This document shows, in pieces, positions 9,711-12,977 of a DNA stretch of 25,027 bases. Position 1 is the stretch's first letter, and every line of letters begins with the position of its first letter. Below the pieces are notes generated by a model that was given only the letters and a program-made list of their open reading frames with translations, was not told where the DNA came from and searched no databases. Origin of the DNA: an uncultured bacterium (GTDB lineage Bacteria; Caldisericota; Caldisericia; B22-G15); assembly GCA_965612865.1 (NCBI GenBank), contig CBFDTJ010000014.1:1-25027 (forward strand), read 5' to 3'. A program made the position numbers and the translations under genes.

Positions 9711-10486
9711 AGCTTTACCTCCAGAGGGTATCCTTCCTTCTTCAACAAATAAGAAAGATAGGTGAGTGGGGGAACGGATAGATCAATACTTTTTAATCTC
9801 TCAACTTCTTTAAAGACATCTTGAGGGGGTCCATCCATCTCTATCCTTCCATCATTTAAAACTATTACCCTCTGCGACATTGATGCTTCTTCCATTCTGT
9901 GAGTTATAAGCACTATGGTTATACCCTTCTTATGTAATTTCAATATTAAATTAATTACATCTCTTCTTCCCCCTGGATCCAGAAGAGATGTTGGCTCATC
10001 AAGAACAAGGTACTTTGGCTCCATGACTAAAACACCTGCAATGGCAAGTTTCTGCTTCTGTCCCCCTGAGAGAAAATGGGGAGGAAAGTTTTTAAATTCG
10101 TAAAGACCAACCTCTTCAAGAACTCCATCAACCCTTTCTCTTATCTTATCTGGAGGAAAATTTAGATTTTCAAGTCCAAAGGCAACATCTTCTTCCACAA
10201 TCTGTGAAACAATCTGATTATCTGGATTCTGAAAAACCATGCCAACCTTCCTTCTTATCTTGTAAAGATTCTCCTCCTCCCTCGTGTTCATGCCATCAAC
10301 AAAAACCTCCCCTTCTGAGGGGAGGAGGAGAGCTGATATTAATCTTGCAAGAGTTGACTTACCTGATCCGTTTCTTCCTATTATGCTGACAAATTCACCC
10401 TTATCAATCTTAAGATTAACATCTTTAAGTACATCAATCCTTTCGGGTGAGAGGTAAGAAAAAGAAACATTCTTAAATTCAATCAC
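9656..10486 (-). CDS. ecfA1: ECF transporter ATPase A1
   Basis: GRNGSGKST, VFQNPDNQIV, LSGGQKQ, DEPTSLLDP; GTG start overlapping the rplQ stop. Confidence 0.93.
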   Translation of the reverse strand: MIEFKNVSFSYLSPERIDVLKDVNLKIDKGEFVSIIGRNGSGKSTLARLISALLLPSEGEVFVDGMNTREEENLYKIRRKVGMVFQNPDNQIVSQIVEEDVAFGLENLNFPPDKIRERVDGVLEEVGLYEFKNFPPHFLSGGQKQKLAIAGVLVMEPKYLVLDEPTSLLDPGGRRDVINLILKLHKKGITIVLITHRMEEASMSQRVIVLNDGRIEMDGPPQDVFKEVERLKSIDLSVPPLTYLSYLLKKEGYPLEVKLWKREDLLKEILQLKLRV

Positions 10487-10836
10487 TCTTTTATAAGCTC
10501 AATTATTACCTGGAACGAACCATCACCCCTTCTTTCACCTAAGGGAATTATTCTGGTGTATCCACCATCTCTTCCTTCAAACCTGTCTTTAATTTCCTCA
10601 AGATGCTTACCTGCTTCCTTTGAAAGAAGAAGCGAATAAACTTTTCTCCAATCATGGAGTGTATCTTTCTTTGCCCATGTTATAACCCTGTCTGCAAGTC
10701 TTCTAACTTCCTTTGCCCTTGCCTCAGTGGTTACAATTCTTTCATGGATAATAAGAGATGTAAGAAGATTCCTTAGCATCATTTTCCTGTGAGAAGGAAA
10801 TCTGTTTAGTTTTCTATAGCCTGCTCTATGCCTCAT
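10483..10836 (-). CDS. rplQ: 50S ribosomal protein L17
   Basis: MRHR..RKLNR..HR, ERIVTTEARAKE, GGYTRI, RRGD. Confidence 0.98.
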   Translation of the reverse strand: MRHRAGYRKLNRFPSHRKMMLRNLLTSLIIHERIVTTEARAKEVRRLADRVITWAKKDTLHDWRKVYSLLLSKEAGKHLEEIKDRFEGRDGGYTRIIPLGERRGDGSFQVIIELIKE

Positions 10837-11954
10837 TTTTTCTTCTCCTTTCTAAGAAATAGATTCCATTTCCTAAGTTTGTTCTCTATCCTCTTAACCC
10901 TCTTTGAGGGAAGCTCAAATTTATCAGACAGAAGATCTGAAGCACTATACCCTAAAAGATCCTTTAAGGTCTTTATTCCGCCCTCTTTTAATCTCATGAG
11001 CTCCTCATCGGTCAATGCAAATTCATCCATAAGTTCATCAATTGGCTTAGAGAAGAATGAAGGCTCTTCCACAGCCTCTTCTGTTTTGAAGAGCACCTCT
11101 CTTATCTCCTCAATGGACTTCTCTCCTATTCCTCTTATATCCTTTATGTCTCCAGAATTTACCAGCTTTTTAAGTTGGGTGACTGTCTCTATTCCCTCTT
11201 TTCTTAAGATGTTCTTTATTCTACTTGGAATGGGGAGTAACTCCACAGAGAGTTCTTTCTTTACCTCTTCCTCTTTGAATTCGCTTATAATGCCCATGTA
11301 ATACTTGAGAATCTCAGATGCTTCCTTCAAGGCTTTTCTCGGGTTTATTGCACCATTGGTATAGATTTCCATAACCAGTTTCTCTCTCTTCGGGAATGGT
11401 GCAACATCTGAAGAAGAGACCTCAAAATTTACCTTCCTTATGGGGGAGAAAATTGTATCCATAAATATTGTATTTATTGGAAATCCCTTCTCCTTATTCT
11501 CTGATTCTAAATTGTATCCAAAACCTCTTTTAACATAAGCAGTAATCTCTACTTCACCTTTCTTGTCTGTTATGGTGAATAGGTGCTGATCCGGGTTCAC
11601 TATCTCTATATTTGGATTTGGGTCAAAGTCCGAAGCCTTAACCTCCTTTTCTCCTTTAACTTTCAGGTGAAGTTTATCTCTATCAAGTGAACCCTTTATT
11701 ATTACCTGTTTTAAATTAAATATTATTTCTGGCACATCTTCATACACATGAGGAATAGATGTAAATTCGTGGGTGATACCACTTATTTCCACAGCGTAAA
11801 TGCCATAACCTCTTATGGAAGAAAGAAGAACTCTCCTTAGAGCGTTGCCAAGTGTTATTCCATAACCTCTATAGAGAGGATCAACAACAAACTTTAAGTA
11901 ATTCTCCTTCTCTTCCAGGACTTTTACTTTCGGTCTTCCACTTAAATACTCCAT
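10833..11954 (-). CDS. rpoA: DNA-directed RNA polymerase subunit alpha (373 aa, two alphaCTD-like domains)
   Basis: PLYRGYGITLGNALRRVLLSSI, HEFTSI, FSPIRKVNFEV; located between rpsD and rplQ. Confidence 0.97.
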   Translation of the reverse strand: MEYLSGRPKVKVLEEKENYLKFVVDPLYRGYGITLGNALRRVLLSSIRGYGIYAVEISGITHEFTSIPHVYEDVPEIIFNLKQVIIKGSLDRDKLHLKVKGEKEVKASDFDPNPNIEIVNPDQHLFTITDKKGEVEITAYVKRGFGYNLESENKEKGFPINTIFMDTIFSPIRKVNFEVSSSDVAPFPKREKLVMEIYTNGAINPRKALKEASEILKYYMGIISEFKEEEVKKELSVELLPIPSRIKNILRKEGIETVTQLKKLVNSGDIKDIRGIGEKSIEEIREVLFKTEEAVEEPSFFSKPIDELMDEFALTDEELMRLKEGGIKTLKDLLGYSASDLLSDKFELPSKRVKRIENKLRKWNLFLRKEKKK

Positions 11955-11964
11955 CTTTCACCCC

Positions 11965-12591
11965 TTACTTGGAGTAGAACTCAACAACGAGTTCTTCTTT
12001 AATTGGAGTATCTATCTGGTCTCTTGTGGGAACTGAAAGAACCTCTATTGTAAAGTTGTCAAAGTTTGTGTTGAGCCATGGAGGAACAAAGGGTTTTTGC
12101 TCTATGGCAGAAAGAACTGTGGGTATATTTTTTGCCTTTGGTCTTAACTGAATCTTGTCTCCTGGTTTTACCTCAAAGGATGGAATTGTAACTTTTCTTC
12201 CATTTACAAGAACATGACCATGGGAGACAAGCTGTCTTGCAGCAGACCTTGAAACTGAAAGTCCTCCTCTAAAAACTACATTGTCGAGCCTTCTCTCAAG
12301 TAGCTCAAGGAGTTTTTCACCTGTGGCAATCTTTCTCTGAGATGCAGCTCTTTCAAAGTACCTTCTAAACTGTCTCTCCATAACTCCATATATCTTCCTT
12401 AGTTTCTGTTTCTCCCAGAGATGTATTGCATAATCTGAGGGTTTGGATTTTCTTCTTATACCCTGCATACCTGGTGGAGAGAACTTTCTCTCAAGGGGAC
12501 ATTTGGATGTATAGCACTTTTCACCCTTTAGAAACAGTTTCACACCAAGTCTTCTGCAAACTCTACATTTGGGTTTGGTAAGTTTAGCCAT
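11965..12591 (-). CDS. rpsD: 30S ribosomal protein S4 (zinc-binding form)
   Basis: CRVCRR..LFLKGEKC, LERRLDNVVFR, ARQLVSHGH, VVEFYSK; start moved to ATG 12591, which has a GGAGGT SD. Confidence 0.97.
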   Translation of the reverse strand: MAKLTKPKCRVCRRLGVKLFLKGEKCYTSKCPLERKFSPPGMQGIRRKSKPSDYAIHLWEKQKLRKIYGVMERQFRRYFERAASQRKIATGEKLLELLERRLDNVVFRGGLSVSRSAARQLVSHGHVLVNGRKVTIPSFEVKPGDKIQLRPKAKNIPTVLSAIEQKPFVPPWLNTNFDNFTIEVLSVPTRDQIDTPIKEELVVEFYSK

Positions 12592-12602
12592 ATCTACCTC
12601 CT

Positions 12603-12977
12603 TTAGACCCTTCTTCTCTTTGGAGGTCTGCAACCATTATGTGGAATTGGTGTTACATCCTTTATGGATTTAACAACCAGACCTCCAGTTTGAAGAGCTC
12701 TTACTGCAGTCTCTCTACCTGGACCTGGACCTTTAATAAAGACATCAACATACTTTGCTCCCATATTTACTGCCTTTTTTGCAACTGACTCTGCTGTAAG
12801 CTGAGCAGCAAAAGGTGTACCTTTTTTTGTCCCTTTAAACCCAGCAGTACCTGCAGAACCCCATGTAATCACATTGCCATTCTTATCAGTAATGGTAACT
12901 ATTGTATTGTTGAATGTGGACTGAATATAAGCATTCACATACTCGTCTATTCTTTTTTTCTTTTTCTTTTTAGCCAT
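12603..12977 (-). CDS. rpsK: 30S ribosomal protein S11
   Basis: [45 protein letters not shown]. Confidence 0.98.

Follow-up and report, generated by a model that had tools for sequence, protein, structure and literature searches.

A second, diverged C-terminal domain in the RNA polymerase alpha subunit of Caldisericia

The RNA polymerase alpha subunit (RpoA) of an uncultured bacterium of the Caldisericia was found to carry two tandem C-terminal domains (CTDs). The gene lies in the window analysed here, a stretch of 25,027 nucleotides. The two-CTD RpoA is real, lineage-wide, old and under selection, and sequence comparison is what suggests its function. An alpha subunit of two domains has been regarded as a fixed feature of bacterial RNA polymerase; in this one class, the number of CTDs varies between one, two and three by family.

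The rpoA gene is located in a minus-strand ribosomal-protein superoperon with the usual order rpsM-rpsK-rpsD-rpoA-rplQ, the neighbours being recognised from sequence (Table 1). Because the ATG of rplQ overlaps the stop codon of rpoA (ATGA), no separate open reading frame is hidden in the RpoA extension. The protein scored above the curated cut-offs of TIGR02027 (264.6 versus 227.8 bits) and NF003519 (293.4 versus 277 bits), and its N-terminal domain (NTD) matched PF01193 and PF01000. It was the sole PF03118-matching protein of the 87.6% complete genome, in which custom alphaCTD profiles gave no further strong match elsewhere. These results showed that the protein is the ordinary, single RpoA of the cell. 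With two CTDs per chain instead of one NTD and one CTD, it represents a variant of RpoA. The intact NTD suggests that it assembles as a dimer into core polymerase, and if that dimer is normal there would be four CTDs per polymerase, as a first-pass annotation of this DNA had reckoned. At the window start, a TrkH-like membrane transporter and a kinase-like open reading frame, also recognised from sequence (288-2288 on the plus strand versus 2271 onward on the minus strand), face the minus-strand block and appear unremarkable.

Table 1. Features of rpoA and its neighbours in the window (all on the minus strand)
Feature	Position	Strand	Basis
rpoA, RNA polymerase alpha subunit	10833..11954	-	373 aa; ORF translation and RpoA models
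alphaNTD, dimerisation and assembly domain (aa 1-225)	11280..11954	-	PF01193 aa 26-217, PF01000 aa 55-170
Short charged linker (aa 226-234)	11253..11279	-	29 residues from NTD helix to R265-equivalent
alphaCTD domain 1 (aa 235-289)	11088..11252	-	PF03118 E 3e-10; alignment; pLDDT ~80
Acidic inter-domain linker (aa 290-298)	11061..11087	-	12-residue spacer in 9/9 f1 members
alphaCTD domain 2 (aa 299-368), class-specific terminal type	10851..11060	-	profile, AlphaFold2 fold, alignment
Basic tail KEKKK (aa 369-373)	10836..10850	-	translation
rplQ, gene downstream of rpoA	10483..10836	-	recognised from sequence and gene order
rpsD, gene upstream of rpoA	11965..12633	-	recognised from sequence and gene order

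Two PF03118 matches had been expected. Two stretches of the whole protein were indeed matched, but of the isolated domains only domain 1 was clearly recognised (E 3e-10), while domain 2 (E 0.028) reached 14.6 bits and missed the cut-off of 23.8; it is therefore overlooked by annotation. When a profile was built from 32 terminal domains, the first 47 PDB rows were all RpoA chains, with a best E of 5.3e-8. The AlphaFold2 model of domain 2 alone (pLDDT 80) was most similar to the Bacillus subtilis alphaCTD 1z3e (Z 9.8, rmsd 1.9, 66 residues aligned) and to Escherichia coli alpha 4mex (Z 9.6); the next matches after alphaCTDs were SAM/HhH domains (Z 7.5). Alignment of domain 2 with domain 1 by hhalign gave a probability of 85 and E of 6e-6. 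Foldseek of domain 2 returned no match at E ≤0.001, yet its first 40-odd rows were alpha chains. The ESM Atlas gave generic alphaCTD clusters only, at 0.85-0.86, which is under its reliable range, and a word-based search with aa 228-373 retrieved nothing beyond the cluster of this RpoA. A full-length AlphaFold2 model from 9 sequences showed the NTD at low confidence, and Foldseek of that model was not domain-specific. Taken together, the profile matches and the predicted structure indicate that domain 2 is an alphaCTD by fold and by homology, in agreement with the two tandem domains of alphaCTD fold that had been noticed in the 373-residue protein and with the fold proposed for aa 300-368.

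Only 12 of 63 residues are identical between the two domains, and their DNA shared only short chance-level matches (longest exact run, 9 bases), which implied an old duplication; that it is ancient is almost certain. The same layout was observed in all 8 other genomes of the family (9/9 including this one, at 63-99% identity), and the 90%-identity cluster of this RpoA has 37 members. A contig from the run of another study spans window positions 10400-12000 unbroken, with 4 substitutions and no gap, and in three further runs, which cover this stretch piecewise, neither an indel nor a joint is listed. A mis-assembly, a read-through or a chance helical extension is thus practically excluded, being refuted by the layout, the cluster, the independent contig, the divergence, the fold and the selection described below. 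Such artefacts do exist: in two long RpoAs of other lineages, near-identical repeats take in some of the NTD and have the appearance of assembly repeats.

To describe the distribution in the phylum Caldisericota, the family of this organism (this genus plus a sister genus) is denoted f1, other families of Caldisericia f2-f6, and a family of another class f7. The alphaNTD was matched once each in 92 of 93 genomes, with frame lengths that split by family. Among the 70 of 92 RpoA proteins read, two CTDs were found in f1 (9/9), f5 (13/13) and f6 (2/2), three in f4 (11/11), and one in f2 (12/12), f3 (14/14) and f7 (9/9); one f2 protein, of which only part of the sequence was taken, was left out of the residue counts below. 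The 22 unread RpoAs (11 each of f2 and f3) have frames of 305-338 codons, which leave no space for a second domain. With the terminal-domain profile, matches were obtained in 35/35 genomes of f1, f4, f5 and f6 and in 0/58 of f2, f3 and f7 (E 1e-12). Since this profile was built from the matched families, leave-one-family-out profiles were also run. The left-out terminal domains scored 45-65, 33-47 and 40-53 bits, and any other CTD at most 38, 41 and 42 bits, respectively; the left-out domains ranked first on average, but the f4 range overlapped with the single domains of f3. These results demonstrated that RpoA of Caldisericia has one, two or three CTDs depending on the family.

The evolutionary order of these states was examined with several trees. 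In a domain tree of 61 rows, the terminal domains formed one group (support 89/72) with the middle domain of f4 as sister (88/88), values that come from few columns (66) with long-branch warnings and an orthology support that was not starred. A tree of 22 operon proteins from 36 taxa had the topology ((f1,(f2,f3)),(f4,(f5,f6))), and the 20-taxon operon-protein tree supported f1+f2+f3 with an SH-aLRT of 87. AU tests were made on 12 of the 36 taxa. The clade f1+f4+f5+f6, which would need one gain and no loss, was rejected with Dayhoff-6 recoding (p-AU 0.026) and by neither LG (0.285) nor LG+C10 (0.237). A homologous RpoB insertion of ~240-265 residues at one site was present in 12/12 genomes of f2-f6, 0/3 of f1 and 0/2 of f7 (L165-L181). 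This pattern points to f1 as the earliest branch, and the corresponding tree was rejected in none of the AU tests. Whichever of the two favoured trees holds, it entails a gain in the class ancestor and a loss in f2+f3. The trees and the RpoB insertion thus indicate that the terminal CTD was likely gained in the class ancestor and lost in the ancestor of f2 and f3, and we infer from them a further CTD copy gained in f4. Apart from this question, the RpoB insertion would help to place the root of Caldisericia.

The dN/dS of domain 2 was estimated in three trios of f1, giving 0.041 for this genus and 0.059 and 0.122 for the sister genus (two trios); in f6 it was 0.041. These values were like those of domain 1 and the NTD, and the long linkers had values of 0.16-0.41. 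In a deep f1 comparison domain 2 reached 0.34 at a dS of 1.19; because dS was saturated in several deeper comparisons, only shallow dN/dS values were relied on. The terminal domain is under purifying selection.

For the residues that touch DNA, E. coli numbering was set on the proteobacterial-type CTD of P0039. N268, G296 and S299 belong to the UP-element contacts of E. coli alpha. According to PMC5101437, upstream DNA is contacted by R265, N294 and K298. In domain 1, R245, N248, G277, K279 and S280 correspond to R265, N268, G296, K298 and S299, and this full set of five was found in 3/3 proteins of this genus, so the statement that domain 1 keeps the UP-element equivalents was confirmed. In domain 2, R265, N268, G296 and S299 are replaced by E317, M320, P349 and R352, as had been described, but K298 is kept as K351 in the PSKR motif, contrary to that description.

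Across the class, the terminal domain lacked both R265 and G296 in 34/34 cases, with Lys at position 265 in 7/34 and Ser/Thr in 31 and Pro in 3 at position 296 (Pro in 3/3 of this genus). None of the 34 had the full set of five, although N268 was present in 6/6 of the sister genus and K298 in all 34. Together with the five contacts kept by domain 1 of this genus, this agrees with the proposed duplication with specialisation. K298 was Lys in 79/79 domains of the 34 multi-CTD proteins; in single-CTD families it was Ala in 11/11 of f2 and Thr/Ala in 11/14 of f3. Only two columns were invariant among 32 terminal domains, one of them the surface lysine K298, and the majority of the conserved columns are hydrophobic core positions. 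Position 294 was Lys/Arg in 25/25 terminal domains of f4-f6. Domain 1 had the full set in 17/34 multi-CTD proteins, namely in this genus, f5 (12/12) and f6 (2/2), with 0/6 in the sister genus, where N268 and S299 are lost, and 0/11 in f4. The characterisation as one DNA-binding-type and one degenerate domain therefore fits this genus and is not general. In f2, the single alphaCTD is strongly degenerate, keeping R265 and G296 and having lost N268, K298 and S299; it is under the Pfam cut-off, and its helix 3 is shorter by 3 residues (L030, L055-L064, L074).

The two domains also differ in their flanks. The L253 equivalent and the terminal L-x-L are both present in domain 2, the latter as the first-pass annotation had pointed out, and both are missing from domain 1 of f1, where K occupies position 253 in 9/9; no domain 1 in any of the four multi-CTD families has L at 312/314. 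The terminal domains carry D/E at 258 and 259 (33/34 and 30/34) and E304 (33/34). Domain 2 has a basic last helix and, in helix 0, a 4-residue insertion; an insertion of 4-5 residues is common to the terminal domains, 34/34 of which have 10-11 residues at positions 257-262, where every other CTD has 6-8. A one-residue insertion near helix 3 was considered as a common terminal-domain trait and dropped, as f4 lacks it. The leash from the NTD helix to the R265-equivalent of domain 1 has 29 residues in f1; its length is 35-48 in the remaining families and 44-45 in four references from outside the phylum's families. The inter-CTD tethers outside f1 are variable, mostly acidic and 55-102 residues long.

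The net charge of domain 2 is +1.3 in this genus, with the last helix at +6, and from -0.2 to +2.5 across families. Helix 0-1 of the terminal domain is acidic specifically in f1 (mean -5.7 in this genus and -4.2 in the sister genus); its averages in f4, f5 and f6 are -1.5 to +0.8. Segment 294-310 of the terminal domains averages +1 to +6. Domain 2 of f1 is thus a strong dipole, with -4 to -6 at 256-273 and +5 to +6 at 294-310, and domain 1 of f1 has the mirror image, with +1 to +2 and -1 to -2, respectively. Outside f1, the helix-4 charge of the terminal domain (+1.0 to +2.2) was like that of canonical references (+1 to +2). The acidic repeats of NusA have a helix-hairpin-helix fold; the suggested likeness of domain 2 to them proved weak, as domain 2 has a net charge of about +1, a last helix of +6 and the invariant K298, and an acidic helix 0-1 occurs only in f1.

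How these features might work together can be proposed from the residue patterns. The terminal domain might serve as an extra, tethered, sequence-independent grip on the DNA backbone, a tentative reading in which we place somewhat less than even trust. Without R265, the terminal copy would stop reading the narrow minor groove of UP elements. It would retain the phosphate-contacting end of the helix-hairpin-helix, formed by K298, Ser/Thr at 296 in most members and the basic last helix. It could then grip upstream DNA independently of sequence, adding avidity and reach beyond domain 1, which would act as the specific reader where R265/N268 are kept. In f1, the leash of domain 1 is short and just 12 residues separate it from domain 2, so the pair probably works as one tandem unit; outside f1, the long and mostly acidic tether might let the extra arm range further. 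The families without the extra arm, f2 and f3, have mostly lost the K298 contact too, but this link stems from one evolutionary event, on the branch of f2+f3, and ordinary alphaCTDs often have K298 as well, so that no independent support follows from it. Further observations count against the DNA-grip reading. Pro at 296 in this genus presumably offers no backbone NH for a phosphate, the terminal helix-4 charge outside f1 is canonical, and f2 lives with a single degenerate CTD (full set 0/11), so that a loss of readout does not require an extra arm to make up for it.

In a broader form, the polymerase of the Caldisericia ancestor may have gained four, and later six, arms, the extra ones being a dedicated module with its own partner or a DNA-wrapping role, which we consider conceivable but rather uncertain. 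If so, the extra arms would take the place of upstream activators within the polymerase itself, or connect it to the ribosome; the lineage has also altered the end of sigma region 4, and two of its families would later have lost the arm along with K298.

Alternatively, domain 1 might touch DNA while the basic helix of the terminal domain meets an acidic protein surface; activators, NusA-NTD, sigma region 4 and the ribosome are candidate partners. Such docking, the main rival reading, is possible but rather uncertain. It would fit the acidic 258/259 and the L312/L314 end, which the terminal domain retains and domain 1 has lost, the absence of R265 and G296, and the conserved lineage-specific insertion with the near-invariant E304, as a binding surface might have. 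Furthermore, in 21/21 Caldisericia proteins read, region 4 of the primary sigma factor has no HPSRS end, which is kept in 3/3 of f7 (L122-L146). In E. coli, sigma R603 has a role in the alphaCTD-sigma interface. With the HPSRS end gone, this interface may be rewired class-wide, which would agree with docking. PMC7171158 and PMC13374769 also describe the alphaCTD as binding NusA-NTD and transcription factors. However, the sigma change is also present in single-CTD families, and none of the tested partners (NusA length, sigma, omega, CarD/Mfd, RpoB and RpoC) separated multi- from single-CTD families. NusA, detected in 88/93 genomes, showed no split in length by CTD number, and the lengths of RpoD, RpoB and RpoC did not follow it either. 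Among 27 genomes of the phylum, a CarD-type domain (query PF02559) was found in 26, in Mfd-sized or other long frames and never as a stand-alone CarD. Omega (PF01192) was found in 5/27 genomes at E 0.01, being too diverged to profile, with a weak match in this genome (G000:C41:2583-2720).

Two variations in core subunits were seen in the course of these searches. The N-terminal regions of the primary sigma factor (RpoD) vary widely in length by family. The RpoC frames of f1 have 1351-1358 codons, and their model match is in three pieces. In the other 14 genomes it is in two, so f1 appears to have an extra insertion of its own in RpoC (region G000:C29:11347-12218, L150-L152).

It is also conceivable, though unlikely, that the extra copy is a structural or neutral accretion which lends stability to the polymerase or to the trimmed domain 1 and is selected for folding only, with no regulatory partner. 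The terminal L-x-L of domain 1 is lost in all four multi-CTD families, two families of Caldisericia manage without the extra copy, and the conserved terminal-domain columns are mostly hydrophobic core. But the surface residue K298 is one of just two invariant columns, the dN/dS of the terminal domain is as low as that of the NTD, and a domain beyond a variable tether of 55-102 residues would be badly placed to stabilise domain 1.

By analogy with NusA-AR2, the acidic face of domain 2 could fold as an autoinhibitory cap onto the basic, DNA-binding face of domain 1, to be released by DNA or an activator. This seems improbable, and is plausible only for f1. The mirror-image charges of the two f1 domains and their spacer fixed at 12 residues in 9/9 members would suit such a cap, as would the binding of NusA-AR2 to the alphaCTD through the UP-element site, described in PMC7171158. 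On the other hand, the sister genus keeps the acidic face although its domain 1 has lost N268 and S299, and the terminal domains of f4, f5 and f6 have no acidic face and sit on long, variable tethers, so a cap cannot be the ancestral role.

Repeated alphaCTDs outside the class were also inspected. Among the best 120 of 1649 RpoA-like proteins of at least 364 aa, a sample biased towards the query, 60 were near Caldisericia references and all had 2 or 3 CTDs; the other 60 comprised 54 with a single CTD (in many cases plus an acidic tail), 4 with none and 2 with near-identical repeats. The terminal-domain profile gave 1355 matches in 1.84 billion representatives, the best 150 of which were considered. 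In this set, 143 had no alphaNTD match, most with 2-12 matched stretches, and the 7 with an NTD match were four Caldisericia proteins plus P0205, P0151 and P0207. These last three contain NTD parts and 2-3 CTDs, are single-member clusters, and canonical motifs are preserved in their copies; the repeats are near-identical in one, and another has a copy inside the NTD. Repetition of the alphaCTD is thus common, and sporadic within RpoA, yet among the matches examined an old, diverged and lineage-fixed copy was seen only in Caldisericia.

P0207 (409 aa, from another lineage) has a second alphaCTD inside the NTD insert domain (aa ~107-176) in addition to the normal terminal one. Many proteins of 200-2000 aa (P0122-P0269) have 2-12 alphaCTD-like stretches and no alphaNTD, and form a large, apparently uncharacterised set. 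In P0132 (309 aa, a single-member cluster), an N-terminal part unlike RpoA, which we take to resemble a phage prohead protease, is fused, with a glutamate-rich stretch at the junction, to a terminal alphaCTD of the f1 type; it is probably a chimeric assembly.

In a title- and abstract-level literature search, no paper was found on tandem CTDs in one RpoA chain, a theme that older surveys of RNA polymerase domain evolution may mention, nor on the RNA polymerase of Caldisericota. In PMC13374769, alpha is described as an NTD plus one CTD, and the word "tandem" does not occur. The Caldisericia families provide natural CTD deletion and addition variants with which to ask what the alphaCTD does beyond reading UP elements, such as sequence-independent upstream wrapping or factor docking, and the domains are small enough (~70 residues) to be assayed in isolation or grafted onto a model polymerase.

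Compared with the canonical one-CTD RpoA (TIGR02027, PF03118; 1Z3E, 4MEX/1LB2), the present protein shares the NTD, the operon position and the single copy, both of its C-terminal domains have the predicted alphaCTD fold, and domain 1 of this genus keeps the five contacts. It differs in having two CTDs per chain (three in f4), in a domain 1 without its N- and C-terminal flanks on a leash 6-19 residues shorter than in other families and references, and in a domain 2 that lacks R265 and G296 and has the helix-0 insertion. The Francisella alpha1/alpha2 heterodimer (PMC3294249) likewise has two non-identical alphaCTDs per polymerase, for which its authors suggest possibly differing DNA and protein contacts; there, however, the whole gene was duplicated to give two CTDs per enzyme, whereas here tandem CTDs in one gene would give four or six. 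AR1 and AR2 of E. coli NusA, which serve as docking or inhibitory modules (PMC7171158), are likewise small helical domains arranged in tandem on a protein of the transcription machinery. But they are predominantly acidic and belong to NusA, whereas domain 2 has a nearly neutral charge, a basic last helix and the sequence of an alphaCTD. Fold searches rank the alphaCTD first, and no NusA chain is among the rows listed, although some structural likeness to AR1/AR2 is still conceivable. NusA frames in Caldisericota are mostly 343-412 codons, leaving little room for two AR domains. Finally, the alphaCTD arrays outside RpoA and the sporadic RpoAs with repeated CTDs resemble the present case in that the alphaCTD is often repeated, but P0205, P0151 and P0207 are single-member clusters, while the domain in Caldisericia is old, diverged and fixed across four families in the housekeeping rpoA.
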